Source of the DNA: a virus
Lineage: Duplodnaviria; Heunggongvirae; Uroviricota; Caudoviricetes
IMG/VR virus record: IMGVR_UViG_2737471843_000003
Span: 1-14,020 of that record
Direction: 5' to 3' (one strand)
Length of the DNA: 14,020 nt
The notes under the pieces were generated by a model. That model saw only the letters and a program-made list of their open reading frames with translations. It searched no databases and was not told where the DNA came from. The position numbers and the translations under genes were made by a program. Positions within the stretch are counted from its first letter, which is position 1; each line of letters starts with the position of its first letter. This document shows positions 1 to 14,020 of the stretch, piece after piece.

Positions 1-342
1 ATGATGAAAAAAAGTATTCTGACGTTTCTGTTACTCACCAGTTCTGCAGCGGCGCTGGCTGCACCGCAGGTGATTACCGTCAGTCGTTTTGAAGTGGGTA
101 AAGACAAATGGGCGTTTAATCGCGAAGAGGTGATGCTGACTTGCAGACCGGGTAATGCTTTGTATGTCATTAACCCAAGTACCCTCGTGCAGTATCCTTT
201 AAACGATATCGCACAAAAGGAAGTTGCCAGTGGGAAGACTAAAGCCCAACCCATTTCGGTGATTCAGATTGATGATCCTAACAATCCCGGCGAAAAAATG
301 AGTCTGGCACCGTTTATAGAACGAGCTGAAAAACTCTGTTAA
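1..342 (+). CDS. yebY: Small secreted protein with N-terminal signal peptide, DUF2511/YebY-like
   Basis: ORF track 113 aa. The N-terminus [23 protein letters not shown] looks like a Sec signal peptide with an AxA cleavage site. I recognise the sequence as E. coli YebY from memory, not from a search. A hairpin plus T-run follows the stop. Confidence 0.6.
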
Positions 343-371
343 TTACCTAAAATAGCCTTTTGATTTCCAAT

Positions 372-413
372 AAAAAAACCGCCTCAGTTCTTTCACCAGA
401 ACGGGCGGTTTTT
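372..413. terminator. Rho-independent terminator downstream of yebY, A-run / GC stem / T-run, potentially bidirectional
   Basis: AAAAAAACCGCC at 372-383 pairs with GGCGG at 404-408, with an inner GTTC/GAAC pairing, followed by TTTTT at 409-413. The A-run on the other side would make it usable from the minus strand as well. Confidence 0.6.
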
Positions 414-469
414 AACATTTCAGCTGATGACCACCACGCTTTTTATTGACCATTTTGCACGCAAACTGG

Positions 470-500
470 AAAACCTGGCGTCGTCATCTATTCTTAAAGG
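470..500 (+). promoter_or_regulatory. Sigma-S-type promoter for sdsR
   Basis: A -10 element TATTCT at 489-494 preceded by C at 488 (the -13 C typical of sigma-S promoters), placed 6 nt upstream of the proposed SdsR 5' end at 501. No convincing -35 element. Confidence 0.45.
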
Positions 501-569
501 GCAAGGCAACTAAGCCTGCATTAATGCCAACTTTTAGCGCACGGCTCTCTCCCAAGAGCCATTTCCCTG

Positions 570-603
570 GACCGAATACAGGAATCGTATTCGGTCTTTT
601 TTT
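570..603 (+). terminator. Intrinsic terminator of SdsR
   Basis: GACCGAATAC (570-579), loop AGGAATC, GTATTCGGTC (587-596), then TTTTTTT (597-603). Read directly from the sequence. Confidence 0.75.
581..603. other. Putative attL core, the last ~23 bp of sdsR
   Basis: A tyrosine integrase gene ends 130 bp downstream. The terminal 23 bp of ryeB/sdsR has been reported as a recurrent phage attachment site in Salmonella and E. coli. The exact crossover cannot be determined from one junction. Confidence 0.4.
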
Positions 604-640
604 AATTGTATTTAAAATCAATTAGTTGCAAACGTCTCCC

Positions 641-670
641 CGAAATTACTCGAAATTTACTCGAATTTCT
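641..670 (+). repeat. Three tandem 10-11 bp direct repeats, candidate arm-type integrase binding sites
   Basis: CGAAATTACT (641-650), CGAAATTTACT (651-661), CGAATTTCT (662-670), read directly. They sit between the putative core and the int 3' end, like the P'1-P'3 arm sites of lambda attP. Confidence 0.4.
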
Positions 671-734
671 GTATTCCGGTCTTTTTTGGTTATATCACAA
701 CCAAAACACATTTAACAATCCATTTACGTTAAAA

Positions 735-1811
735 TCAGAGCAGTAAGTACGTTTTTTCTCTCTCATCAAGATACATTTTTGTTGTCTTCTCCGATGTGTG
801 GCCAAGTAGACGTTGAGCAAATTCTTCCCCACATGTTTCTTTGTACAATCGTCCAGCCAGGCTTCTGATCTCGTGAAAAGTTGGTGGGTTTTCACTGAAC
901 TGGATACCTGTTAATTTTCTGGCTGCGACAAATTTTTTTGTCAGGCCGTCCGGGTGAATGCTGCCGTCAGGGCTGTTTTTTCTAATCCCGGCACTGATTA
1001 GAAAATCTCCCCGGCTTACCAGGCGGCACCGTTCAACTACTGTACCAAGACGTAAACCAGCGACCGGAAGGCTGAGTGACAGGGGGATAGCAATCATCAT
1101 TCCTGTCTTAATTTGCCTGATGTGAAGACGATCATCATAAATATCACTGAACCGCATATTCGTTATGTCTTCGCGACGTTGTCCTGTTACAAGGGCTAAG
1201 TCCATAGCTAATGGGAACCATGCCGGAAGTTGATCTGCTGCCTCCCTGATGCAGTTGTATGTCTTTAGTTTCAGCCGTTCTCTTGTAACTACTATTTTCG
1301 GTGCTCTTGTTGGCGTTACTGGATTTTGAGATATACGCCCTTCAACAATGGCTTCGCGGAACATATCAGATAACACAGAACGCATTGATCCTGCCATCGT
1401 GTTTTTCCCTCCTTCAATCCACAAATCAAGAAACTCGGCAATATGGCGAGTGGTTATTTCTGTCAGTAAGATCCCTCCTAATTTTTCTTTTATTGTTTCC
1501 AGTTGATTTCCCCGAATTTTATAAGTATTTCTGGACACTTTTCTCCTTATAAGAATCGTTTTGTAACGTTCAATCCAGTCTGCCATAGTAAATGAGTCGA
1601 ACCCTTTAAGTTTTTCAATTAAGGCAGCAGGAGAGTAGTTTTTGTATATATAATGATTTGCTTCAATTGCCTGCGCGATTGCATCTCTTCTTGAAATTTT
1701 ACCTAGTGTAAATTCTTCTTTCGTAAGAGGGTTGCGCCAGTAATATGCTTTGTCCCTCCTTCGATATGTTAAGTTCCTAGGCAAATTGGGATCGTATTTT
1801 TTCCGCTGCAT
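735..1811 (-). CDS. int: Tyrosine recombinase, lambda Int-family integrase
   Basis: ORF track 358 aa. The N-terminus resembles the lambda Int arm-binding domain. The C-terminus carries the catalytic signature [11 protein letters not shown]...[15 protein letters not shown] (R, HxxR, Y). Its start overlaps the xis 3' end. Confidence 0.9.
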
Positions 1812-2058
1812 GTTTTAACTTCTCCAGTAACGGACTGTCTCTCCCTTGTCGCCCATTAGGCTGATGGTGTGTTATATCGGTATCAACCTTATTTGGGTTG
1901 ATATAGAAAGCCTCCGGAACCACCCTGTAACTCCTCCCGTGTAGTTCAGGTGCAGGATAAATGTTTCCATTCCTTGCCCATCGTCTCAGCGTTGATATTG
2001 ATGGTGGGTTATCCGGATATCTGAGTTTTCCCCACGTTTTGAGTGTCACAAGATTCAT
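1777..2058 (-). CDS. xis: Excisionase (Xis-like)
   Basis: The pattern VTLKTWGKL...STLRRWARNGNIYPAPELHGRSY resembles the lambda Xis winged helix. It overlaps int by 35 bp. I prefer the start at 2058 (AGAGG 7 nt upstream) over the track start at 2064. Confidence 0.7.
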   Translation of the reverse strand: MNLVTLKTWGKLRYPDNPPSISTLRRWARNGNIYPAPELHGRSYRVVPEAFYINPNKVDTDITHHQPNGRQGRDSPLLEKLKHAAEKIRSQFA

Positions 2059-2080
2059 TGCCATACCTCTTACGATATGA

Positions 2081-2109
2081 CCGCCAGTAAATATACAGAA
2101 TACTGGCGG
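2081..2109. promoter_or_regulatory. Perfect 9-bp inverted repeat upstream of xis
   Basis: CCGCCAGTA (2081-2089), 11-nt spacer, TACTGGCGG (2101-2109). It lies about 20 bp upstream of the xis ribosome-binding site with no adjacent T-run, so a protein-binding site or RNA hairpin is more likely than a terminator. Confidence 0.3.
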
Positions 2110-2164
2110 ACGTGATTGATTTTTAATAATCAGCTATGAAGTTATAATTTGGATATAATGCAAC

Positions 2165-2353
2165 TCACGAGGGCCGAAGTTTCTCGCAATTAAAATTTAT
2201 CAGCTTTACTTTCTGCTCTCTGGAAACGCCTGCTTCTTTTTTCCCCGAGAGCATTTTTTCGCATTCTGATTTAGTTAGTTTAGATTTTGAATATCTTGTC
2301 CAGTTAGTAGGAGTGCCACCTTCCTTTTCAATAGTGGCGGTAATTTTATACAT
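2165..2353 (-). CDS. Small hypothetical phage protein, 62 aa, at the Rac ydaC position
   Basis: In frame with track ORF 2165..2425. An internal ATG at 2353 is preceded by GGAGG with 5-nt spacing, and overlaps the lar stop by 8 bp. The family is not confidently recognised. Confidence 0.5.
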   Translation of the reverse strand: MYKITATIEKEGGTPTNWTRYSKSKLTKSECEKMLSGKKEAGVSREQKVKLINFNCEKLRPS

Positions 2354-2540
2354 GAACACCTCCATTATTATTTCCAGTGGTTCGTTTATTCCATCGTTCG
2401 AGTGCTTCTTTTTCACTTCCACCATAGCCGGTTCGGGATTCGCATCCGTTACACTTCGCGCGGTAATATCCTGAAATGGCTTTCACCGTTACTGATGGAC
2501 AACCACAAAAAGGGCATGGTTTGACTTTTTCATACCGCAT
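2346..2540 (-). CDS. ralR: Lar-family restriction alleviation protein (RalR-like)
   Basis: Track ORF 2346..2555. The CPFCG...CNGCE zinc-ribbon-like motif and ALERWNKR are typical of the Lar family. A start at 2540 gives 64 aa, the Rac RalR length as I recall it. Confidence 0.7.
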   Translation of the reverse strand: MRYEKVKPCPFCGCPSVTVKAISGYYRAKCNGCESRTGYGGSEKEALERWNKRTTGNNNGGVHV

Positions 2541-2603
2541 TGTCTTTTCTCTCATATAATAAAGTTTTGTGATGGCGGTGAGGCTACACCGCCAAAGTCA
2601 ATA

Positions 2604-3707
2604 TCAGGAGCCGATATATTCTGGTTTCATATCTGTCAGTGTCGTTTTATACGCCTCATATAATTCACCCAGATGTGGTCGTGCAGCATTCAGCGTATTT
2701 TCCAGAGCAGTAAATTTTTGTTCTGCTTCTGGATCACCTGATGAAGGCAGGTCATTTATCATCTTCTCGATACTGGCAATAGCATTGAGACGGTGATGAC
2801 GCCGAACCACTTTTCCTTTAAGCTCGGCAAAGAATTCGCCGATCTGGTTTTTCTGATCCTCTATCTCTTGGCGTAATGCAGTGGTTTCCTCAGTCGTGGC
2901 CGCGCTTTCTATACGCTGCCGGAATTCATCAATCCACGCTTCGTCAATACGCTGTTCGATGGTTTCTGTTCGCTGCTCGCTTACCTCGCTATAATTCTGT
3001 ACCGACACAGGATTGATGATTTTTTCCTGTGGCTCTTCCAGTTCGTCCGGGGTATACACGCCCAGGATGACGTCAGGACAATAAAGGCGAGCCCAGTATT
3101 TCAACGCCAGATAGGCGAGCTGTTGTTTCGGGTTTGAGGTCCATAAAGGAGAATTACGCGTAATCACGCTGGAAAGAAACACCGGTTCTCCCCAGGTAAT
3201 CTCACTTTCACCGCGAAGAACTGCACCAACTCGAACTGAGAGACCATACTCATCTTCACTGGTCCAACATGGGATCGTTTCTTTTTTCTCATAGATTCCG
3301 CCTCCTTTGGCCGTTTTCTTAACGATCTCCACTCGGGTGCGAGAGCATTTCTCCCAGTCTCCCTCGTACTTGTAATGGAAGCGACCTACAATTGCACTTG
3401 AGCTAGAGATCACAGCGTTAACCAGTTGTGCTTCATAACCCAGAACTCCGTTTACCAGGTGTGTTTTCTGAGCCACAGCGTAGGGGTTCATGCCCCATTG
3501 CATAGCTTGCATGATGATTGCCATGCAGTCGGCAGGATTTCCGCGAAGGTGATCGGGAACTGTGACGGTGGCCTGTGCCATCAACCCGGCTACTGCCTGA
3601 AGTTGCGTCAACGCCTGAACGTTAAAAATAGTGTTACTGGCAGAAATGGTATTTGGTGTCTGCTCTGTCGTGATGATATTGGTATTTTGCATGGTCAGGT
3701 TCTCCAT
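2604..3707 (-). CDS. Single-strand annealing protein, RecT/Redbeta superfamily, partner of RecE
   Basis: ORF track 367 aa. The core ADCMAIIMQAMQWGMNPY...VNGVLGYEAQLVNAV fits the RecT/Redbeta pattern. It sits immediately downstream of recE with a 1-nt stop/start overlap. It is clearly not the canonical 269-aa K-12 RecT sequence. An alternative start at 3692 has GGAG upstream. Confidence 0.7.
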   Translation of the reverse strand: MENLTMQNTNIITTEQTPNTISASNTIFNVQALTQLQAVAGLMAQATVTVPDHLRGNPADCMAIIMQAMQWGMNPYAVAQKTHLVNGVLGYEAQLVNAVISSSSAIVGRFHYKYEGDWEKCSRTRVEIVKKTAKGGGIYEKKETIPCWTSEDEYGLSVRVGAVLRGESEITWGEPVFLSSVITRNSPLWTSNPKQQLAYLALKYWARLYCPDVILGVYTPDELEEPQEKIINPVSVQNYSEVSEQRTETIEQRIDEAWIDEFRQRIESAATTEETTALRQEIEDQKNQIGEFFAELKGKVVRRHHRLNAIASIEKMINDLPSSGDPEAEQKFTALENTLNAARPHLGELYEAYKTTLTDMKPEYIGS

Positions 3708-6700
3708 TAAGCCAGATGCAGTGCTTCAAGACGACGAAGATCAAAGTCGTTTAATTCGTCGGTATAACTTTCGGTAATCGGTGCTGGCCAGTTGTTTGTC
3801 TCCAGGGCTTCGTTTATCTGGCGTAGCGTCCGGCGATATTCCTGTCGACCAAGTTCAAGGAGTTCCTGCGAGGCTTCCACGACTGCCACCCAGTGATAGC
3901 CAGCATCTTTGTTGACGAAGATCCAGAAAAATTTGTCCAGGTTTGCCACATCGCAATACATTGCGGCGCTGAGGTGATAATCACGCTCAATAATTTCACG
4001 GTGCAGGCGATCTTTAAGTCGTTCCTGCCGCACATAACCGAGGCTGACTGACTTCACGTCAGCGCAAATGCTTTCGTATGGCAGCCGGATTTCGATATCA
4101 GGACGGACCCTGATTTCCAGCCCGGTTTCTTCATCAAACCCGAAATAGCTGATTTCAGATTTGCGATCCGGGTGGTTGAGTAGCCTTGCTGCATCGGTAT
4201 TGTTTTGCAGTGCCGCGTGAATATTTTTTGCCTGTTCATACATATCCGGACTGATAAACGTTTTCCCGGCGTTTTCTTCTTGCTGGCGTTTTTGCCAGTC
4301 CTCCAGTGTCACCAGTTCCGGGCGAATTTTCCGTGCGATTTCGGTTAATTGCTCTTTTGTGCCACTGATGTTGTAAGGCAAAGATTTAGCACGTTCTTTT
4401 TTTGCCAGTTCTGGATCTACAGTTTCAATTTGATCCAGAAGCTGCTCCCGTGCTCCACTGGTTTTCAACAGAGGAGGGAGGCTTGCGTTGTATTCTTTAA
4501 TACAGGCTTTCATTGCTGATGCTGTGTGTTTTTCCCCCTCAGGAATACGCCGAAATTCCACCGGAAGCGAACCGTAAAGGATGCCTGTTTCTTCGGCCCC
4601 AGCACTTACAGACAGTGGCTGTATAAGAGTGCTGTTGTAGCTTTCGATCCACTCTTTCATCTGCTCTGGTGTCATCAGTGCTGGCAGACTGGCATTGTGT
4701 TTTTTAATGATGGCGATCAGTTCGTTAGAAGTAGTAACCACATATTCAGGAACCGGTACCGGAATGGCATATTCATCTGCGAATTTATCCGTTTCCAGAA
4801 CATAGCTGTGAATGATCCGCCCACGCAGCAGTGCGTCACTTTCCTCGTTCGGAATAGTTCCGGCAATGTGCCGCCCGTGGTAATACATCAGGCTGATACG
4901 GGCATCCTTCAGCATCGTGCTGCTTATTCCGTTGGCGGAGTGATAAACCTCGTTCGGGAGGTTTTCATAGCGGCCTGGCTCGAAATATGACGGCCACATG
5001 ATTTCAGTTGCTACAGGAGCTGACGCTTCGCCAGTTTCATCACTGCAATTGCGATGCGGATCGCTGTCAGCATTCTCATTGTGCTGATGTTCAGCGCCTT
5101 CCATTTCCTCCGGATCTTTTTCCAGAGATTCATCCAGATTTTCTTCATTAAATGTTTCCTGATACGTTGCGTCGCCCATCGCCGCGCCACAATCAGGGCA
5201 GTTGCCCCCACCGATCTGACCGCAGGCGGTGCAGACTTTTTCCGGTTCTTGTTGCTCTTCTGGTTCAGGCTGTTTCGTTTCTGGCTCGTTTTGTTGCGTA
5301 TTTGGGCTGTTTTGTTCCGCTTTCTTGTCGTTCTGTTCCGTTTCTTGCTGGTTCTGGTTCACAGAGTCGAGGGTTTCAATCCCCTTAACCCATTTCGGAT
5401 CGTTCGGGTCGCTAATCCCTTCAACAAATTCTCCGCGAGAGGCAGCCAGTAATTTGTCTGCATCGACAGGATTTTTGGGCGGAATGTTTTTCCGGGCTTC
5501 ATGGAGTTCTGCCCGCAGTTTCTGATATTTCGCATCAACAGAATTTACCTGTGACTGAGCATCCAGCGGCTGCGTGTTCTGATGATGTTCAGTTGCATTC
5601 GGTTCCACTGTTTCAGCCGTTGCCTGTTCATCTGCCATTGCGCCAGATGGTTGTGGTTTTTCTTCATCGTCCTGTTTTCCTTCTTCTGTTACTCGCTGCG
5701 GCATCGGGGCAGAGGAGCGACCGCAGGCAATATCCACGATTTCCGGATCAGGGTTGGCATGATCGGTTTCAGTCAGTACTTTGTTCAGATATTCAGTGAC
5801 GTGTGCGGGGATGACCTCGATCCCAATTGGTGCTTCTTTCACGGACGCAACCACGATGGCGCGGGAATAATCCAGCCCGCCAGGCATGGTGATGAATTTG
5901 TCGCGGAAAACAGAAAAGGGTGGTTTATTTTCAGCGATAATTTCCTCAATGCGTTTAGCGTGTGCCGGATGAAGGTTATAAATGTCCACGTCCATTGAAC
6001 GGGCCAGTACGCCAGTGGCTACATCGCGTGCCAGTGACGTCAGATCGTGGACGAAACCTTCGCCGCGATCGGTGAGGTTCCCGCCGCCAGCATTAGCACC
6101 GGAAGCCGTGCGAGTGATGCGTGAAACACGATTTCCTTTCATCCACTCTTTTGTCAGCAGACCGCGATCGGTGTAGTCTGCGTCCAGGTATGCTTCGAAA
6201 AAAGCAGTCATCAGCCCCAGACTTGAATTGCCTGGATTAGGGAAAACTTTGTCAGTATCACGAACCAGTCTGTGAAGATCGCGAATCTCCAGCGGGTCGA
6301 GCAGGCTGGTTTTGTGGGAAACAGCTAGGGCAGTAACAGCTGGTAGTTCTTCGGCCCGTGCAATATGTAATGTCTGGAGTTCGTCGCGTGAAACGTGCGT
6401 TACCGGTTTTTCGCTGCCGTGTTGAGCAAGCCAGCGAATGGGCAGCTCTTGGCCAGAAATCGGGAGTAGCATATTCTCCTCAATCTCAGTCATGTCTTCG
6501 CCATTAACATTGGTATTGTCAGTGCTGTCTGGTTTGTACTGCGCAGAGGATGAGGGCGCGATAAATACCATTGTGATGCCATCTTCCCCGCCTTTTTCGT
6601 AACGGTTGCAGAATTCCGTATCAAATACGCCTTCTGGTGGAAGGTCATCAACAACGGGCAAATTGACGCGAACAGGTTTTTTAAAGTCATCTTCATCGTA

Positions 6701-6856
6701 GCCAGCATCGTCAATCGCAACAGCACCACGGGAGATGGCAATGGATAATTTTTTCGCTTCAGCCCAGTAGAAACCGCCTTTAATACCGAGACGTTTTCTT
6801 ACTTTGTCATTTTTTGCTTCGTAATACAGTGGGTAAACTTGTTTATCGGTGCTCAT
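3707..6856 (-). CDS. recE: Exonuclease VIII (RecE-family 5'-3' dsDNA exonuclease)
   Basis: ORF track 1049 aa. The C-terminal domain carries PD-(D/E)xK-type residues (RPDIEIR...CADVKS) and long stretches I recognise as RecE-like. It is about 180 aa longer than the 866-aa K-12 RecE as I remember it. Confidence 0.85.
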
Positions 6857-6926
6857 TGTTTTTTAACCTCAACTCAGATTAAAATTACTGCGAGTGATGA
6901 ATAAATGTCCCTGGTTCTTCACTCAG

Positions 6927-6957
6927 GCCTGCACAGTGTGCAGGCTTTCTTTTTTTC
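6927..6957 (+). terminator. Perfect hairpin with T-run in the racC-recE intergenic region, terminator-like only on the plus strand
   Basis: GCCTGCACA (6927-6935), G, TGTGCAGGC (6937-6945), then TTTCTTTTTTT. On the minus strand, which is the operon strand, the hairpin is preceded by an A-run and has no U-tail. Confidence 0.35.
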
Positions 6958-7231
6958 AGATTTCACCTTTTAATTTCATTGCAATCAGAGTTGCCAGAAA
7001 TTCGGCTTTTTTTTCTGCGGGCAGATTCTTTCCTATGTGCACCAGACACATTTTTTTAACACCATCGTTAAGTGTTTTAACGTTGCCTGATGGACCGTCG
7101 ATATCAACCACAGTGAATGGGGTTTCTTTATTTTCTGTCTTAATCACGTAGCCAATACGCTTTCCTTCCAGGCTGACTTCGTGAACAATGTCATCGGTAG
7201 TTACAACAGTGGCTTCATAACTGGTAATCAT
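6956..7231 (-). CDS. racC: RacC-like protein, 91 aa
   Basis: Track ORF 6956..7279. The ATG at 7231 is preceded by AAGGAG with 6-nt spacing and gives 91 aa beginning MITSYEATVVTTDD, recognised as Rac RacC. Confidence 0.75.
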   Translation of the reverse strand: MITSYEATVVTTDDIVHEVSLEGKRIGYVIKTENKETPFTVVDIDGPSGNVKTLNDGVKKMCLVHIGKNLPAEKKAEFLATLIAMKLKGEI

Positions 7232-7305
7232 GTTTTTCTCCTTAATTAAGGTTGAGCGAATCTCTGCCATTTCTGGCATAAATTCAGTTTCGAATAGTCA
7301 ATTAA

Positions 7306-7476
7306 TTAAAGTTCGTGTGCCATCTGGTCTTTTTCGGCACAGATTTCACTACAATATTTTTTCATTTCCGTCGTTGGTATAACTCCACGCATGAAATGAA
7401 GTGGTCTTGTAATGATTTTGCTTTCTTCAATTTCTTTATTGCAAAGGTGATAAGCACATTTTATTTTCTTAGTCAT
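7306..7476 (-). CDS. ydaE: Small Cys-rich protein, 56 aa, YdaE-like
   Basis: Not in the ORF track because it is under 60 aa. Hand translation gives [56 protein letters not shown]. Its ATG overlaps the kilR TGA stop (ATGA). Its size and position match Rac ydaE. Confidence 0.6.
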   Translation of the reverse strand: MTKKIKCAYHLCNKEIEESKIITRPLHFMRGVIPTTEMKKYCSEICAEKDQMAHEL

Positions 7477-7697
7477 CACCATGACTCCGCCTTTACAGGT
7501 AAACCATCACGACCGAGGAAGACTTTAATCATGCGGTCAGTAATGCATGTTTTTGTGGTCAGGTTACGAATATAAAGTTTTCGCTTTTTAATATTGTTTG
7601 CCGAGGCGATATATGTCCGACCTTCATGAAGAACATAATCGCCAGGAGTCACACACTGACGTGGTATTTCATCAGTTCCGAAGTGATGAGCAATCAT
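7476..7697 (-). CDS. kilR: KilR-like cell-division inhibitor, 73 aa
   Basis: Track ORF 7476..7709. The ATG at 7697 is preceded by GGAG and gives a 73-aa protein beginning [15 protein letters not shown], recognised as Rac KilR. Confidence 0.75.
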
Positions 7698-8106
7698 AAT
7701 TATCTCCATTTTTACAAATGAATTTTGTCGATGCGGTGCCTGGTGCCTCCAGGTGACGTTAACCAGTTAACAATTAACGCCGGATATTTCACCCATAACT
7801 CTGCTACGAAGGACAATAGCTTTTTAACTGTTCCGCGTGCGCTTAGCCGCATTCACCGCATCACAAAATTCACTTTAAAAAGGGGCGGCAGGGCAGCCAC
7901 GGAGTAGAACTGATGCCGCCAAAGACTACACACAGCAATGTCGTTATTTACAACCGGAGGCGCACTCCCACCATTTAAATTTAACAGACAAAACCGACTC
8001 TTTATGAATACCGGAAATGCGCCTTCGTGTTGTGCGCCTGTCTTTTTACCACTTCAGGCTCGGTGGTATACTGGAGTTCTCACACAACCAGTAATAAGGT
8101 ATTCCT

Positions 8107-8301
8107 ATGGATAATAAAGACAAAGCCTGTCTACTTGCTTTAGCTTTCAGCATCAGATCGCAGCGAGAAACAACTCATCAATAATTTTTCTCGGAAATCG
8201 AGAATGCTGAGAATGAGTTTTTGTCACTACTCAATGAACGTGATGCTAAAAAAAGCGCCGATTCACTTAAGGCTTGGGCGAAACTAGGCTCTTCAAAATA
8301 A
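8107..8301 (+). pseudogene. Small ORF interrupted by an in-frame TAA: 25 codons, stop, 38 codons
   Basis: ATG at 8107 gives MDNKDKACLLALAFSIRSQRETTHQ, TAA at 8182-8184, then in the same frame FFSEIENAENEFLSLLNERDAKKSADSLKAWAKLGSSK ending at TAA 8299-8301. An extended -10 (TGgTATACT, 8064-8072) lies upstream. Its 3' end overlaps the convergent 72-aa gene. Confidence 0.3.
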
Positions 8302-8485
8302 TTGCTTCTGTAGCGGCATGAACAACTGTTTTTGCCGCCTCTTCAACTTCCTTGTCTGGACGACCAGCCTTTACTTTTTCTGCAATGACCTCCAGCACAG
8401 TTGGAAGAACCTTGCTAATAAGCATGGCTGCCACATCTTTGCTGCACAATTGACCGTTAATAACAACCAGATCTTCACCAACCAT
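8267..8485 (-). CDS. Hypothetical small protein, 72 aa
   Basis: Track ORF 8267..8542, whose first codon is TTG. The internal ATG at 8485 is preceded by AAGGGGA. It is the first gene downstream of the candidate pL-like promoter. Function unknown. Confidence 0.45.
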   Translation of the reverse strand: MVGEDLVVINGQLCSKDVAAMLISKVLPTVLEVIAEKVKAGRPDKEVEEAAKTVVHAATEAIILKSLVSPKP

Positions 8486-8660
8486 CTTTTTTCCCCTTAA
8501 CGCCGGGTGGCGGAACGTTTTATCTACTGCGCTTTGTATCAATCAACAACTGCCGTCATGTTCGTATGCCTCAGGCTGGCTACTTAGCCCTATTCAGTGG
8601 CTGGATAACTCGAGGTATTGTCCTGCCGTTCTCTGGTGGGGCGTTGTTTGGATATGGCAA

Positions 8661-8689
8661 ATGCTCACATATCGTGAGTGTTTTGTCAA
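8661..8689 (-). promoter_or_regulatory. Candidate pL-like leftward promoter with an operator palindrome in its spacer
   Basis: On the minus strand: TTGACA (plus 8684-8689), 17-bp spacer, GAGCAT (plus 8661-8666, weak -10 with TG upstream). The perfect palindrome CTCAC-N5-GTGAG at 8664-8678 overlaps the spacer and -10 and matches the operator motif found between the repressor and ydaS. Confidence 0.4.
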
Positions 8690-8730
8690 CTCAATATGTG
8701 AACAATGTTGCTTTTGGATTTTTGATGGAC

Positions 8731-8765
8731 AAAAAAAAGCCCTCGCTAATAGCGAGAGCTTTTTG
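8731..8765. terminator. Rho-independent terminator downstream of the repressor gene, bidirectional shape
   Basis: A8 (8731-8738), GCCCTCGCT (8739-8747), loop AAT, AGCGAGAGC (8751-8759), then TTTTT. One mismatch in the stem. Confidence 0.6.
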
Positions 8766-8790
8766 ATTGGAATCGAGGGAGATTAAAGGC

Positions 8791-9180
8791 TTAGGAGGAT
8801 TTTTTCTGTTGCCTGCTTCTTAGATATTTTTCCACATACTCATCAAGCTCTTGAAGACGGATTTCGAACAGATCAATCATGCGTGCTTGTTCCGATCCTG
8901 GGAGCTGATTAAACAGTTCTAGCATTTTTTTCTGGTTATCATTTAACCACGAGTAAGTGTTTTCCTGTTCACCGAACATTAATTCTGCGGGGGAAATGCC
9001 TAGTACCTGGCCGAGGATGATCGCATCCTCAGCCCCCACACTCCTGGTGCCAGCTTCGTAGTTAGCAATACGAGAAGAACCTGACCAACCACATAGTTTT
9101 GCCAGGTTTCCCATACTTAATCCTCGATTTAGGCGAGTGGCTTTTAGTCGCTCGCCTATTTGTTCTGCAATGGTTTTCAT
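8791..9180 (-). CDS. XRE-family HTH prophage repressor (cI/RacR-like), 129 aa
   Basis: Track ORF 8791..9285. The HTH region is LSMGNLAKLCGWSGSSRIANYEAGTRSVGAEDAIILGQVLGISPAEL. I prefer the ATG at 9180; the track start at 9285 is a TTG that would overlap the ydaS start. The gene is divergent from the Cro-like gene. Confidence 0.8.
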   Translation of the reverse strand: MKTIAEQIGERLKATRLNRGLSMGNLAKLCGWSGSSRIANYEAGTRSVGAEDAIILGQVLGISPAELMFGEQENTYSWLNDNQKKMLELFNQLPGSEQARMIDLFEIRLQELDEYVEKYLRSRQQKKSS

Positions 9181-9274
9181 AGCTCCGATTTTATCACGAT
9201 GTGTGAAATTAGCGGTACTCACATATCTGTAGTTGATCTTGCTCACGAAATGTGAATAATAGAAACAGGAGGTA
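9181..9274. promoter_or_regulatory. Divergent promoter/operator region with three operator-like sites at ~24-bp spacing
   Basis: TCACGATGTGTGA (9194-9206), CTCACATATCTGTAG (9218-9232, half-site match) and TCACGAAATGTGA (9243-9255). Rightward promoter: TTGATC (9233-9238), 16 bp, AATAAT (9255-9260). Leftward -10 TAAAAT (plus 9188-9193) sits 7 nt from the repressor ATG. Confidence 0.6.
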
Positions 9275-9277
9275 ATG

Positions 9278-9520
9278 ATGAACAAAATTTCAACATATCG
9301 AAAACAGCTTGGGCTGTCTCAAAGACAACTTGCTGTTCAGTTAGGGTGGATACAAAGCCGACTGGCAAATTACGAAGCAAATTTTCGTACCCCTGGGCTA
9401 GAGGAGTGCAGAAAAATTGTTTCTACCCTTAATCGGCTTGGCGCTCATTGTGGACTTGACGATGTATTCCCCCCAGACGGTAAGCATAGCGAAAACAGCA
9501 TAGGAGCGGTTGATTCATGA
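9278..9520 (+). CDS. ydaS: Cro-like HTH protein, YdaS-like
   Basis: Track ORF 9275..9520. AGGAGG at 9267-9272 favours the ATG at 9278. The HTH region is LGLSQRQLAVQLGWIQSRLANYE. It is the first gene of the rightward operon and its stop overlaps the ydaT start (ATGA). Confidence 0.7.
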   Translation: MNKISTYRKQLGLSQRQLAVQLGWIQSRLANYEANFRTPGLEECRKIVSTLNRLGAHCGLDDVFPPDGKHSENSIGAVDS

Positions 9521-9939
9521 AAATCAGGCATGAGCATATCGAATCAGTGTTGTTGGCCCTGGCAGCCGAAAAAGGGCAGGCGTGGGTCGCTAACGCAATT
9601 ACTGAAGAATATCTGCGCCAGGGGGGCGGCGAATTGCCCCTTGTACCAGGCAAGGACTGGAACAATCAGCAGAATATCTATCACCGTTGGTTGAAAGGTG
9701 AAACGAAAGCGCAAAGGGAAAAAATTCAGAAACTGATCCCTGCGGTTCTGGCAATTCTTCCGCGCGAGCTGCGTCACCGACTCTGCATCTTCGATACCCT
9801 GGAACGCCGTGCATTACTGGCGGCGCAGGAAGCGTTGAGTACGGCAATTGATGCGCATGATGATGCAGTCCAGGCCGTTTACCGGAAAGCACATTTCAGC
9901 GGTGGTGGGTCGCCCGGCGATTCTGTCGTAGTGCATTGA
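9517..9939 (+). CDS. ydaT: YdaT-like protein, 140 aa, reported as a toxic prophage protein
   Basis: ORF track 140 aa. I recognise the sequence MKIRHEHIESVLLALAAEKGQAWVANAITEEYLRQGGGELPL as Rac YdaT from memory. It is translationally coupled to ydaS. Confidence 0.75.
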   Translation: MKIRHEHIESVLLALAAEKGQAWVANAITEEYLRQGGGELPLVPGKDWNNQQNIYHRWLKGETKAQREKIQKLIPAVLAILPRELRHRLCIFDTLERRALLAAQEALSTAIDAHDDAVQAVYRKAHFSGGGSPGDSVVVH

Positions 9940-9983
9940 TTGAAATTAATCGTGCCGGATTGTTTTGTTCGGTATCAGTTAAA

Positions 9984-10004
9984 TGTAACGCTGCGAGCGT
10001 TACA
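9984..10004. promoter_or_regulatory. Perfect 21-bp palindrome 12 bp upstream of the ydaU-like start codon
   Basis: TGTAACGCT-GCG-AGCGTTACA with 9-bp perfect arms, read directly. The same core recurs inside the downstream gene. Confidence 0.45.
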
Positions 10005-10016
10005 AGGTGAAAACAA

Positions 10017-11153
10017 ATGGCTTCAAACTGGATAAAGCTCGAGGTTATTACGCCGGATAAGCCGGAAATATTCAGGCTTGCTGAGATTCTGAATATTGAT
10101 CCAGATGCCGCATTAGGGAAGGTTATTCGCTTCTGGGCATGGGCGGATCAACAAATGATAGACGGTAATGCAGATTGTAACGCTCGCGGCGTTACAAAAA
10201 GTGCAATAGATCGCATCACTTTTATGGCTGGTTTTGCTGATGCGTTAATTCAGGTTGGATGGCTGGTCGAAAATGACGGTGGGCTTTCTCTACCTAACTT
10301 TGAACGTCATAACGGAAAAAGCTCTAAAAAACGGGCGGTTACAAACGAGCGAGTTACAAAAATACGCGAACTGAAACGAAAAGGTAACGCTGGCAGCGTT
10401 ACACAAACGGATCAAAAAGCGTTACCAGAGGAAGAGGAAGAGGAAGAGGAAGATCTAAATACTGATCTAACCCATCCCAAACCCTTCCCTTCCGGAAGGG
10501 AGTTTCGGGATTTTGTGGCTGGAGTGCTTGAGGGGAGATTATCTGGCGGTACTGCAGCGGAATTTTGTAATTCTGCGGTGGTGGCGTTGCAGGCCGCTGG
10601 CCTGGATGTCTGTCGTGAGTATCCGGTACCAGAGCGTGGAGACGGTTGCGGAGGTCGGATTGATATCGTCGTGACTGACAGGAACGGTGTCCGGTGTGGG
10701 ATCGAACTTGACCGAAATTCTCCACGACAAAAATCACTGCTCAAAATCGGCGCTGTTGAAACCGGGATATGTGTCTTGCGGCGCAGTGATATCGCAAGGC
10801 ACACCGAGCAGGGAATTCTGGTTATCGGTGGGGCTGTTCGCCAGAAAAAATTTGACCCGTTGTCAGTTGATCTGCCCGACTGGTTGCCAGAAACACTCTG
10901 GCATGAGTGGGTCCAGTTCAGGCAGGCATTGCGAAAACCGATTCGAACGGAGCAGGGCGCTAACGGGGCGATACGGGAACTGGAAAAATTCCGTCAGCAG
11001 GGGTTTACACCTGAGCAGGTGATTCGACACAGCATCGCCAATGAATACCAGGGCCTGTTCGCGCCGAAAGGTGTTCGGCCTGAGACGTTGCTCCGACAGG
11101 TTAACACCGTCTCGTTGCCGGACAGTGCGATCCCGCCAGGCTTCAGGGGGTAA
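10017..11153 (+). CDS. ydaU: Replication initiator / replisome organiser, YdaU-like, with a poly-Glu linker and an extra central domain
   Basis: ORF track 378 aa. The N-terminus MASNWIKLEVITPDKPEIFRLAEILNID...VIRFWAWADQQ resembles the DUF1376 N-terminal pattern of lambdoid initiators. It sits just upstream of the DnaC-like gene. It is longer than the 285-aa K-12 YdaU as I recall it. Confidence 0.75.
   Translation: MASNWIKLEVITPDKPEIFRLAEILNIDPDAALGKVIRFWAWADQQMIDGNADCNARGVTKSAIDRITFMAGFADALIQVGWLVENDGGLSLPNFERHNGKSSKKRAVTNERVTKIRELKRKGNAGSVTQTDQKALPEEEEEEEEDLNTDLTHPKPFPSGREFRDFVAGVLEGRLSGGTAAEFCNSAVVALQAAGLDVCREYPVPERGDGCGGRIDIVVTDRNGVRCGIELDRNSPRQKSLLKIGAVETGICVLRRSDIARHTEQGILVIGGAVRQKKFDPLSVDLPDWLPETLWHEWVQFRQALRKPIRTEQGANGAIRELEKFRQQGFTPEQVIRHSIANEYQGLFAPKGVRPETLLRQVNTVSLPDSAIPPGFRG
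10176..10425. repeat. Iteron-like array of GTTACA-core repeats inside the initiator gene, candidate ori
   Basis: TGTAACGCTCGCGGCGTTACA (10176-10196); direct GTTACAAA half-sites at 10338-10345 and 10353-10360; palindrome GTAACGCT-GGC-AGCGTTAC (10384-10402); half-site AGCGTTAC (10418-10425). A-rich stretches lie between them. Confidence 0.45.
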
Positions 11154-11159
11154 CAGACC

Positions 11160-11906
11160 ATGAAAAATATTGCGACAGGAGGCGTTCTGGAGCGTATCCG
11201 CAGACTGACCCCACCACATGTAACCGCCCCATTCAGAACGGTTGCGGAGTGGCGCGAGTGGCAACTTGCTGAAGGGCAGAAACGTTGCGAGGAGATCAAC
11301 CGCTTGAATCGTCAGTTGCGGGTGGAAAAAATCCTGAATCGCTCTGGCATCCAGCCGTTGCACCGCAAATGTTCGTTTGCGAATTACCAGGTGCAGAACG
11401 ACGGCCAGCGATACGCGTTAAGCCAAGCGAAATCCATCGCCGATGAACTGATGACCGGGTGTACAAATTTTGCGTTCAGCGGAAAACCTGGTACCGGGAA
11501 GAACCATTTAGCGGCAGCTATCGGGAATCGCCTGCTGAAAGACGGTCAGACAGTGATTGTGGTTACCGTGGCTGATGTTATGAGTGCCCTGCATGCCAGC
11601 TATGACGACGGGCAGTCAGGCGAAAAATTTTTGCGGGAACTGTGCGAAGTGGATCTGCTGGTTCTTGATGAAATTGGCATTCAGCGCGAGACGAAAAACG
11701 AGCAGGTGGTACTGCACCAGATTGTTGATCGCCGGACAGCGTCGATGCGCAGCGTGGGAATGCTGACAAACCTGAACTATGAGGCCATGAAAACATTGCT
11801 CGGCGAGCGGATTATGGATCGCATGACCATGAACGGCGGACGCTGGGTGAATTTTAACTGGGAGAGCTGGCGTCCGAATGTCGTCCAGCCAGGAATTGCG
11901 AAGTAA
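11160..11906 (+). CDS. ydaV: DnaC/IstB-like AAA+ helicase loader, YdaV-like
   Basis: ORF track 248 aa. Walker A motif [15 protein letters not shown] and Walker B LLVLDEIG are present. It lies immediately downstream of the initiator gene. Confidence 0.85.
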
Positions 11907-11928
11907 TTTTTACCGGGAGAAAAATTTA

Positions 11929-12690
11929 ATGGAGACTGTTTTTGACGCACTGAAAGCAATGGGAAAAGCCACATCCTTAGAACTTGCTGCGCGACTTGGT
12001 ATCAGTCGTGAAGAAGTGCTGAACGAACTATGGGAACTGAAAAAAGCTGGTTTCGTTGATAAAAGCGCGTACACCTGGCGTGTGGCTGATAACAACGTTC
12101 AGCAGGAACAGCCAGCGCCGGAAGAACAGCCGGAAGAAACCACCACGGCAACAGTAGCGAAAATCTCAGAGTGCGATTTAACCGCGACGATTGAACAACG
12201 CGGACCACAAACGGCGGATGAGCTGGCTGCGTTGTTCGGTACCACATCACGCAAAGTAGCTTCAACGCTGGCAATGGCAATCAGCAAGGGGCGTCTGATT
12301 CGCGTAAATCAGAACGGTAAATTTCGTTACTGCATACCGGGCGATAATTTACCAGCAGAGCCGAAAGCTGCATCGGTAACGGAAACTGATGGTAAGGCCT
12401 TTCCTCAGCCCGCAGGTGTTGCGTTACCAGTACAGGAAGCGGCAACACAGGAAGATATTAAAACAGAAACTGTGGCGGACATTGTGCAGTCGCTGCCATC
12501 GTTCACCGAAACGCGAGCGGATGACCTGATTTTACCATCGCTGCATATGGCAAACCGCGAACTGCGTCGGGCGAAAAGTCATGTCCAGAAGTGGGCGCGA
12601 GTCTGCGCCGCGCTGCGGGAGCTGAACAAGCACCGGGATATTGTTCGACAGATTACTGATTCTTCCCGCCGTGTTGTATCGGAAAAGTGA
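11929..12690 (+). CDS. Hypothetical phage protein with two winged-helix-like segments
   Basis: Track ORF 11878..12690. Two ATG starts are possible: 11878 (GGAGAG upstream, overlaps ydaV) and 11929 (GGGAGA upstream). The segments [30 protein letters not shown] and [30 protein letters not shown] look like winged-helix folds. Function unknown. Confidence 0.55.
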
Positions 12691-12705
12691 TTGCCGGAGG
12701 CACTT

Positions 12706-13128
12706 ATGGCAAAAGTATTTACACAAGAAGAGCGGGAAAAAATTAAAGGGCAGGTTGTTGAGCTAGTACGCCGGAGTGGGCGCGAGACGTTACGGCAACT
12801 GGAAGCCAAGACAGGTGCGACAAGATATCTGATGAGCGTTCTCGCCAGAGAGCTTGTTGCCAGTGGCGATGTATACAACTCTGGTTACGGGTTATTTCCG
12901 TCTGAACAGGCCCGTAAGGACTGGCAAAACGCCCGCAAAAAACTCTCCAGGGCAAAGGTGAAAAAAACGGTTGTGGTTGATCCTGACCTTATCTGGTCAT
13001 TACCAGACGGAGAAATACGCCGCTACGACAGGCGCCTGAATATAATCTGTCGCGAGTGCCGGAAGAGCGAAGCTATGCAGCGTGTACTGGCTTTCTATCA
13101 GGGTAATTTTCAGGAGGTAGCGCAGTGA
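12706..13128 (+). CDS. Hypothetical phage protein, 140 aa
   Basis: Track ORF 12691..13128, which begins with TTG. The ATG at 12706 is preceded by GGAGG with 5-nt spacing. Its stop overlaps the GTG start of the methyltransferase gene. Confidence 0.55.
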   Translation: MAKVFTQEEREKIKGQVVELVRRSGRETLRQLEAKTGATRYLMSVLARELVASGDVYNSGYGLFPSEQARKDWQNARKKLSRAKVKKTVVVDPDLIWSLPDGEIRRYDRRLNIICRECRKSEAMQRVLAFYQGNFQEVAQ

Positions 13129-13598
13129 GTGCACCGGCAACCATTCTTGATATGTGCTGTGGCAGTCGCATGTTCTGGTTCGATAAGAATGACGACCGGG
13201 CGATATTTAGCGATATCAGAAAGGAAGAGCACACATTGTGTGATGGACGACGCTTGATTATCAGTCCTGATCTGATAGCTGATTTTCGTGCACTACCATT
13301 TGCAGACGCATCTTTTTCGATGGTTATATTCGACCCTCCGCATCTTGAGCGTGTTGGTGATAACGCCTGGATGGGAAAGAAATATGGACGGCTGAATAAA
13401 GATACCTGGCGTGATGATTTGCGGCAGGGATTTAAAGAAGCCTTTCGTGTGTTGCGTCCATCCGGCGTTCTGATTTTTAAATGGAATGAAACGCAAATAC
13501 CTGTTCGCCAGATATTGATACTGACCGACAGAAAACCTGTTATCGGTCAACGAACAGGAAAAAACGATAAAACCCACTGGATTATTTTTATGAAATAG
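13125..13598 (+). CDS. Small SAM-dependent amino-methyltransferase, DPPH motif, RsmD/N6-adenine-MTase-like fold
   Basis: ORF track 157 aa. Motif I-like ILDMCCGSRMF and motif IV-like IFDPPH occur in the order typical of N6A/N4C/m2G amino-methyltransferases. The GTG start has AGGAGG 7 nt upstream. No target-recognition domain is evident. Confidence 0.65.
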   Translation: MSAPATILDMCCGSRMFWFDKNDDRAIFSDIRKEEHTLCDGRRLIISPDLIADFRALPFADASFSMVIFDPPHLERVGDNAWMGKKYGRLNKDTWRDDLRQGFKEAFRVLRPSGVLIFKWNETQIPVRQILILTDRKPVIGQRTGKNDKTHWIIFMK

Positions 13599-13744
13599 GC
13601 ATCCAGTGAGTAGGTTCGTAAGGTTACAGATACGTATATCTGAATAATTAAATTTAGTTCTGTAAATAAAATTTAATCCTTAATCGGAGGGATTTCTGCA
13701 CCCTCAAATCATCAGGAGGCCGCCCGAAAGGGCGGTAGTGAAAA

Positions 13745-14020
13745 ATGACTGAATTAACCAAAGAGCAATTAATCGAAGAGGCCAAATTAAAAATAGCGAT
13801 TGCGAAATGCCACCCCAATTCAGGGTTGGCACGAGTAGAGGGTGAGTTATTCAAAATTGCTCTGGCATCACTGGAGCAGAATGCACTATCGGGCAACTCT
13901 CCGCTTATTCCTGGTGAAGTGTTGTCCGCAATCCGGGAGGTTGCCAGGATTCGCGCCGATTTCGATGATTTTGACGGTGACAGGCGAGGTATCGGTGATT
14001 GTCTGGATGAGGCCGAGCAA
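13745..14020 (+). CDS. Hypothetical protein, 5' partial ORF running off the window end
   Basis: ATG at 13745 and an open frame to 14020 (92 codons, MTELTKEQLIEEAKLKIAIAK...). It is missing from the ORF track because it has no stop within the window. The upstream signal is weak. Confidence 0.45.
   Translation, partial: MTELTKEQLIEEAKLKIAIAKCHPNSGLARVEGELFKIALASLEQNALSGNSPLIPGEVLSAIREVARIRADFDDFDGDRRGIGDCLDEAEQ

Follow-up and report, generated by a model that had tools for sequence, protein, structure and literature searches.

A probable immunity switch of a Rac-like lambdoid prophage: an unrelated repressor-operator-cro cassette next to a conserved ydaT

Gene content and organisation of the locus

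The stretch of viral DNA analysed here, i.e., positions 1 to 14,020 of the IMG/VR record IMGVR_UViG_2737471843_000003 (the window), carries at positions 8791-9939 three small genes coding for a repressor, a Cro-like protein and YdaT, respectively, which together very probably make up the immunity region, deciding between lysis and lysogeny, of a lambdoid prophage of the Rac type that resides beside yebY and ryeA/ryeB in Escherichia coli. The positions of the three genes given in a preliminary description, which was made from the sequence alone, agree with the open reading frame (ORF) list and the sequence, and the match of their arrangement to the racR-ydaS-ydaT region of the Rac prophage, as proposed there, is borne out with respect to position, with the surrounding genes also following in Rac order. 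As in other lambdoid immunity regions, the repressor gene and cro are divergent and separated by a short intergenic region (IGR) with repeated operators overlapping the candidate promoters, a cII analogue and replication genes are found 3′ of cro, and kil and recombination genes 3′ of the repressor gene. Gene content, homologies, mosaic junctions and the operator-like repeats together with their conservation were all observed in this analysis; the coordinates are given in Table 1.

Table 1. Features of the immunity region and of the int-xis end of the window. Abbreviations: OR and OL, right and left operators; PR and PL, rightward and leftward early promoters; PRM and PRE, promoters of repressor maintenance and establishment; PI, integrase promoter; HTH, helix-turn-helix; aa, amino acids.
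Feature	Position	Strand	Remarks
Second YdaT-box-like site TTGATTTTTAATAATCAG	2116-2133		52 bp upstream of the xis start; candidate PI analogue
Candidate PL with OL	8661-8689	-	-35 TTGACA 8689->8684; weak -10 GAGCAT 8666->8661, preceded by TGn; putative function
OL operator TCACGATATGTGA	8677->8665	-	exact TCAC-N5-GTGA, in the PL spacer
Intrinsic terminator after the repressor gene	8730-8764	-	14-bp stem followed by U8
CI-analogue repressor	8791-9180	-	129 aa, ATG preceded by GGAG
Candidate PRM	9196->9188	-	extended -10 TGaTAAAAT, from reading of the sequence
OR3-like operator TCACGATGTGTGA	9194-9206		exact; adjoins the repressor start
OR2-like operator TCACATATCTGTA	9219-9231		degenerate
Candidate PR, TTGATC-16-AATAAT	9233-9260	+	upstream of cro-ydaT and the replication genes; operator in the spacer
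OR1-like operator TCACGAAATGTGA	9243-9255		exact; in the PR spacer
Cro analogue	9278-9520	+	80 aa, XRE-type HTH, Pfam HTH_3 (6.7e-10)
Candidate -10 of a PRE-like promoter, TATGCT	9483-9488	-	leftward; 21 nt after the YdaT-box; putative
YdaT-box TTGATTCATGAAAATCAG	9510-9527		one mismatch to TTGATT-N6-AATCAA; spans the cro stop and the ydaT start
YdaT, CII-analogue transcriptional activator	9517-9939	+	140 aa

The repressor consists of an N-terminal XRE-type HTH domain, matched by the Pfam families HTH_31 and HTH_3, and a short helical C-terminal region with the motif LELFNQLPGSEQ. A match to Peptidase_S24 was not obtained in the Pfam search, and the protein is therefore not a CI repressor of the LexA (S24) type. 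Over its full length it is 29% identical (E 7e-14) to DicA of the K-12 prophage Qin, with which it has the C-terminal motif LELFNxLPxSEQ in common. Over residues 1-74 it shows 58% identity to the DNA-binding domain of CI, a LexA-type repressor, from the phages mEpX1/VT1-Sakai; the homology to the mEpX1 protein ends at residue 74, and the relatives carrying PF00717 have 214 aa. Short relatives of 125-135 aa are found in prophages of Salmonella (84% identical), Serratia, Citrobacter, Pectobacterium, Enterobacter and others. With RacR of K-12 there was no BLASTP alignment at E ≤ 100, so that the protein does not belong with RacR. Assignment to the DicA subfamily (NCBIfam NF007257) was rejected at 52 bits versus a cutoff of 101, although the alignment covers positions 4-133 of the 135 in the model. 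Likewise rejected was a longer repressor ORF of 164 aa from a TTG at 9285, as such an ORF would extend across the operators and into cro, and as 129 aa are annotated at near-identical loci in RefSeq. In a search of solved structures only weak generic XRE matches were returned (4ghj, C.AhdI), by which the C-terminal region is left uninformed.

For the Cro-like protein, a start at the in-frame ATG at 9275 would result in 81 aa, but this codon lies too near to the GGAGG. The protein is 62% identical to the Cro of mEpX1 and 75% identical to that of the Salmonella relative. It also has 42% identity over 43 aa to its own repressor, and is a paralogue of the HTH domain of the latter. In the preliminary description it had been named YdaS. 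However, the 80-aa protein gave no match to PF15943 (YdaS) even at E ≤ 10, whereas the controls YdaS of K-12 and DicC of phage Rac-SA53 scored 107.7 and 31.2 bits, respectively, and no BLASTP alignment to K-12 YdaS was obtained at E ≤ 100. With YdaS it thus shares the position but no homology.

Operators and promoters of the cassette

The IGR between the repressor gene and cro comprises 97 bp and contains two exact TCAC-N5-GTGA palindromes, with a third, degenerate copy between them, the operator centres being 25 and 24 bp apart. Exact copies of this palindrome number three in the entire window, all of them within 8665-9255. A consensus promoter scan of positions 8500-10100 gave the candidate PR as the only promoter-like match, and the candidates for PRM, PL, PRE and PI rest on manual reading and comparative spacing. 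The TAAAAT of the candidate PRM is conserved in the corresponding IGR of the Salmonella relative, which has no Shine-Dalgarno sequence, and transcription from PRM would be predicted to start at or next to the ATG of the repressor gene (9180), resulting in a leaderless or near-leaderless mRNA, for which lambda cI and paaR2 of CP-933P are precedents (PMC8630535).

The terminator following the repressor gene folds with -20.6 kcal/mol (z = -4.4; none of 200 shuffled sequences folds as well), a terminator-like site being seen on the plus strand, too, and the candidate PL with its operator is situated just downstream of it. In the Salmonella relative, TCAC/GTGA half-sites occupy the same three positions of the IGR with differing spacer bases, and the same arrangement of TTGACA and operator is found downstream of the repressor gene. 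Similarly, O157, mEpX1, Citrobacter Chris1 and Aeromonas pAEv1818 have nCAC-N5-GTGn at the same two outer positions of the IGR as well as beside a TTGAC element downstream of the repressor gene, in mEpX1 as three tandem copies. The layout of the switch is thus conserved in five related immunity regions, and on the basis of this comparative support for the operators the cassette can be read as OL/PL, terminator, repressor gene, OR1-3 with PRM and PR, and cro.

YdaT, its binding site and the question of toxicity

The ATG of ydaT overlaps the stop codon of cro (ATGA). YdaT belongs to the Pfam family PF06254 (YdaT_toxin; 43.3 bits versus a cutoff of 21), matches PHROG 163, 'CII-like transcriptional activator', with 1.5e-36, and over its full length (residues 1-140) the structures 3c4r and 8bt1 in the PDB. 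For the YdaT of Rac it was shown by Wons 2025 that the protein is a tetrameric activator, the toxicity of its overproduction being accompanied by activation of host rcsA, and that the YdaT-box of K-12 (ATGATTCATGAAAATCAA), which overlaps the ydaT start codon, is footprinted and needed for an up to 29-fold rise in racR transcription (PMC11879457). The residues described there for DNA binding (H56, R57 and W58) and for tetramerisation (L107 and A110) are all kept in the YdaT of the window, and a cognate inverted repeat, the 18-bp putative YdaT-box, is found at the junction of cro and ydaT. Given the retention of these residues and of the box, the same role as in K-12 is the best inference for YdaT, and what the preliminary description called a conserved downstream effector is better put as a conserved establishment regulator of the CII type.

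That the three genes constitute a toxin-repressor (atypical toxin-antitoxin (TA)-like) addiction system, killing repressor-less cells by means of the YdaS-like protein and YdaT as dedicated toxins, is highly improbable, even though two papers from 2017 attributed the essentiality of racR in K-12 to its repression of toxic ydaS and ydaT (PMC5700373, PMC5700377), and the Pfam families are still named 'YdaT_toxin' and 'YdaS_toxin' and RefSeq still uses the label 'toxin YdaT family protein'. As the Cro-like protein of the window is no homologue of YdaS, the toxicity of the latter is not transferable to it. YdaT, in turn, activates transcription in a sequence-specific manner, has a POU-like fold known from a solved structure and plays a role like that of CII (PMC9986795, PMC11879457), and the YdaT of CP-933P was not toxic (PMC8630535). 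The divergent transcription of the repressor gene and the action of its product on DNA argue against a type II TA architecture, and the genetic context is that of a complete lambdoid early region. In addition, the critique by Jobling 2018, according to which racR, ydaS and ydaT are analogues of cI, cro and cII that are not made toxins by their toxicity upon ectopic expression (PMC5917428), applies directly, a TA role for ydaS/ydaT has been rejected in the literature (PMC5917428, PMC8630535), and for CP-933P the cI/cro/cII roles have been demonstrated experimentally and structurally by Jurenas 2021 (PMC8630535) together with Prolic-Kalinsek 2023 (PMC9986795). The toxic module with YdaT as its effector, as assumed in the preliminary description, is contradicted by this body of work on cI/cro/cII-type regulators, in which YdaT is a DNA-binding protein that activates transcription of the repressor gene and is toxic as a result of overexpression (PMC5917428, PMC8630535, PMC9986795, PMC11879457). 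Essentiality of the repressor is not informative, as it is to be expected for any lysogen of a lambdoid prophage that carries kil and lytic genes, and any 'toxicity' at the locus would result from derepression of the early region of the prophage, i.e., from overproduction of YdaT (which in K-12 was shown to be toxic via rcsA), from KilR and from lytic functions, with no dedicated TA role.

Mosaicism and distribution of the immunity cassette

Compared with the DNA of the Rac prophage of K-12, the window is 88-94% identical in blocks. No homology is found across approximately 8644-9510, and a further gap at 8068-8480 is followed by a weak patch of 75% identity (8481-8643), so that the junctions of the mosaic are located at about 8067/8643 and at 9511, the latter being one base inside the YdaT-box. 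On the protein level, YdaT is identical to its K-12 counterpart in 133 of 140 residues (95%), with neither RacR nor YdaS being matched as described above, and according to the MG1655 annotation racR (477 nt, 158 aa) and ydaS (297 nt, 98 aa) are longer than the genes of the window and ydaT (423 nt, 140 aa) is of the same length. The relations of length given in the preliminary description were thus correct, as was its suggestion of a swapped immunity specificity next to a conserved ydaT; of its interpretation as a whole, arrangement and immunity swap stand, but not the identity of YdaS nor the framing as a toxin module.

A third immunity allele is present in phage Rac-SA53, where the repressor and Cro analogues ("dicA/dicC", 153 and 82 aa) are unrelated or barely related to both other pairs and YdaT is approximately 94-95% identical to those of K-12 and the window. 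Accordingly, the three alleles, i.e., RacR/YdaS, DicA/DicC of SA53 and that of the window, adjoin YdaT proteins that are 94-95% identical to one another. In a sample of 5426 complete E. coli genomes, ydaT was found in 1508 (28%), the cro of the window in 162 (3%), and its repressor gene plus IGR in only 10 (0.2%). The swapped immunity region next to a conserved YdaT represents the usual mosaicism of lambdoid phages; relative to K-12 Rac, recombination has exchanged the repressor-operator-cro cassette for an unrelated allele, and ydaT with its box has been kept.

An identical Cro protein, encoded by DNA of 99.6% identity, occurs in 152 E. coli genomes, including O157:H7, O145 and O111, beside a repressor that is only 64% identical. 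In these genomes the HTH-coding half of the repressor gene and the IGR cannot be aligned to the window, the operator at the OR1 position reads ACAC-N5-GTGT, and the recombination junction between the two repressor types sits exactly at the ATG of cro (9278-9520 in the window versus 4001-4243 in L007). As one Cro is combined here with two diverged repressors, at least one of the two pairings is a recent recombinant. It might therefore be asked whether the module is a decayed remnant, in which a cassette has been pasted beside ydaT to give an incoherent circuit, for instance with a Cro not matching the operators or a YdaT that has ceased to drive repressor synthesis, and in which the repressor would do no more than keep a cryptic prophage locked, the more so as many Rac elements, such as that of K-12, are defective. 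This explanation is unlikely, since all ORFs of the module are intact, the cro allele of the window still contains a YdaT-box and, at the usual distance from it, a -10-like hexamer, the near-identical locus PEC178 runs on into intact late genes (lysis, terminase and head genes), and the 47.5-kb record of vB_Apl-pPE4, submitted as the complete genome of a phage, contains a repressor and a Cro identical (100%) to those of the window. Moreover, in the Salmonella relative the 84% identical repressor is accompanied by the 75% identical Cro and the same operators, by which the pairing in the window looks native.

A second YdaT-box upstream of xis

Among the Rac-like loci examined, all those extending to the int-xis end have two, and only two, matches to TTGATT-N6-AATCAA with at most one mismatch, one at the ydaT start and the other approximately 50 bp upstream of xis. 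In the window this second site has the form TTGATT-N6-AATCAG and is followed, 20 nt after the box on the leftward strand, by TATATT (2095->2090). It is conserved in K-12 Rac, Rac-SA53, PEC178 and pPE4 (positions 3504-3521 in the K-12 sequence L001, 2326-2343 in L004, 8558-8575 in L002 and 15658-15675 in L003), and its first base, 2116, is at the same time the breakpoint of homology between the window and K-12 on the int-xis side. In the text of the 2025 paper on YdaT (PMC11879457), xisR and the integrase are not mentioned. As a separate observation, a 9-bp inverted repeat (CCGCCAGTA-N5-TACTGGCGG) at 2087-2109, between the second box and the xis start, encloses the candidate -10 element; it is absent from the int/xis module of K-12.

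In all five mutually non-homologous contexts tested, namely three cro alleles and two int/xis modules (9483-9527 and 2090-2133 in the window and the equivalents in L001 and L004), the box is followed on the leftward strand, at a distance of 20-21 nt, by the start of a TAnnnT hexamer, which at the K-12 racR locus would be the candidate -10 TATGAT, 20 nt after the box. With a TAnnnT background of 0.0092 per position, this would be expected by chance with a probability of about 2e-9 before correction for the choice of offset, and no other offset is common to the five. The spacing suggests that the box is centred near -41.5 of a leftward promoter, as is the case for CII at PRE and PI. Taken together, it is conceivable, and put forward here tentatively, that the YdaT-box is a portable, conserved control element which marks the boundaries of modules in Rac-like phages and drives both a PRE analogue at cro/ydaT and a previously unreported PI analogue at xis-int, in either case from near -41.5 and not from a distance of about 190 bp, and, separately, that one Cro serves two sets of repressors and operators. 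If true, the latter would provide an example from nature in which immunity specificity has evolved solely on the side of the repressor.

Proposed function of the switch

For binding, promoter activity and phenotypes, all of which we infer, the following circuit may be proposed. The 129-aa repressor would bind TCAC-N5-GTGA operators, three of them at OR and one at OL, and thereby silence PR, from which cro, ydaT and the replication genes would be transcribed, as well as PL, from which a small ORF, a DicF-like RNA, kilR and recET would be expressed, and it probably also controls its own PRM. The Cro-like protein would be expected to act on the same operators to turn off the repressor, its gene presumably being translationally coupled to ydaT via the ATGA overlap. 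As the CII analogue, YdaT would bind as a tetramer to the TTGATT-N6-AATCA(A/G) box that overlaps the start of its own gene, by which it would activate leftward transcription into the repressor gene in the manner of PRE, and it probably also binds the second conserved box upstream of xis-int as a PI analogue.

A number of points weigh against reading the locus as an immunity switch of this kind. The repressor lacks an S24 domain, and neither a LexA box nor an antirepressor was found in the window, the search for LexA boxes (CTGT-N8-ACAG), as a route to SOS induction, giving only matches with one mismatch at chance level, all of them in coding regions. The middle operator of OR is degenerate, and the -10 elements proposed for PL and PRE are weak. 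In addition, the published YdaT-dependent promoter of K-12 (PracR4) is located approximately 190 bp from the box and not adjacent to it (PMC11879457). Finally, the binding of the operators, the promoter positions and a leaderless translation are predictions by analogy for this allele, and the view is limited to 14 kb of a prophage that may or may not be intact.

The region is a case of ordinary phage mosaicism and no new toxin system. The locus represents a so far uncharacterised allele of an element whose kind is well understood, and is already present in public genomes under generic annotation, with all three proteins occurring in RefSeq genomes and the DNA being near-identical. The main value of the analysis therefore is a correction: genes still labelled as "toxin YdaT/YdaS" regulate the choice between lysis and lysogeny in a lambdoid prophage, and the name ydaS should not be given to the 80-aa gene described here. 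The locus further provides a clean and quantified case of nested mosaicism around an immunity cassette, and gives rise to three predictions, namely the set of TCAC-N5-GTGA operators, a YdaT-dependent PI-like promoter upstream of xis, and cross-reactivity of Cro with two operator sets, none of which would change the current understanding of phage switches.

Prophage context

The order of the genes in the window is Rac-like, i.e., int, xis, ralR/RalA, recT, recE, kilR, the module, a ydaU-like gene and ydaV. The left end of the window carries yebY and the host small RNAs (sRNAs) SraC/RyeA and SdsR/RyeB, and as this sRNA pair (463-607) lies between yebY and the prophage integrase gene, the prophage is inserted beside the sRNA locus and not at ttcA as in K-12. 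The early region further includes the integrase, an excisionase, a DUF1187 ORF with the RalA sRNA (ralR region), recT, recE and a racC-like ORF. A DicF-family antisense sRNA is found at 7883-7934 on the minus strand (61.6 bits versus a gathering score of 48), upstream of kilR in the putative PL operon, and at the equivalent place the sRNA kilS is annotated in K-12 Rac.

Downstream of the module there are genes for a YdaU-like replication initiator, a DnaC-like YdaV, DUF1627 and DUF977. The initiator (10017-11153) is itself a mosaic: its N- and C-terminal parts match YdaU-type and primosomal PHROGs, its middle, which follows an E-rich linker and comprises approximately residues 159-272, is matched by another PHROG without known function, and homology to K-12 is missing from 9938 to 10844. 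The 47.5-kb record mentioned above (L003; PP818812.1, 'Actinobacillus phage vB_Apl-pPE4', stated host A. pleuropneumoniae) can be aligned to approximately one half of the window, the identity being 93.5%, and carries Rac-like genes of E. coli; its host attribution looks doubtful, and a literature search found no paper on vB_Apl-pPE4.

Comparison with known systems

In the prophage Qin, DicA is a short CI analogue without peptidase domain that is placed over a leftward operon of the kil/DicF type, as is the repressor of the window; DicC, however, is of the P22_Cro/YdaS type and the Cro of the window of the HTH_3 type. mEpX1 and VT1-Sakai have nCAC-N5-GTGn operators at equivalent OR positions, in mEpX1 also three tandem OL sites, but their CI is a LexA-type repressor of 215 aa that includes an S24 domain for autocleavage, and in place of YdaT they have a lambda-type CII.

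PaaR2/YdaS/YdaT of CP-933P and cI/cro/cII of lambda follow the same logic as the switch described here, namely PRM and PR diverging within a 97-bp IGR, a repressor mRNA that may be leaderless, and a CII analogue which binds where cro and cII meet, whereupon the repressor is made. The sequences of repressor, Cro and operators differ, the repressor gene of the window is not followed by TA genes, and the YdaT of CP-933P is only 31% identical to that of Rac (PMC8630535).

In E. coli O157:H7/O145/O111, the Rac-like prophage (repressor WP_000410105, Cro WP_001033914) has the identical 80-aa Cro, a near-identical YdaT, a repressor of the same architecture and C-terminal motif, and TCAC-N5-GTGA at the OR3-like position, the differences being those already given for the repressor, its HTH-coding DNA, the IGR and the OR1 position.

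The Rac prophage of K-12 differs from the window in a repressor and a Cro analogue that are longer and unrelated in sequence and family, in the operators, in a 22-bp gap in place of the 4-nt overlap between the cro analogue and ydaT, and in its site at ttcA, the prophage of the window lying beside yebY with a different int/xis module. Nevertheless, both have the switch at the same position of a syntenic early region, in the same divergent layout and with the same ydaU/ydaV-type replication genes downstream, and in both a YdaT of 95% identity is encoded behind a YdaT-box at its start codon.

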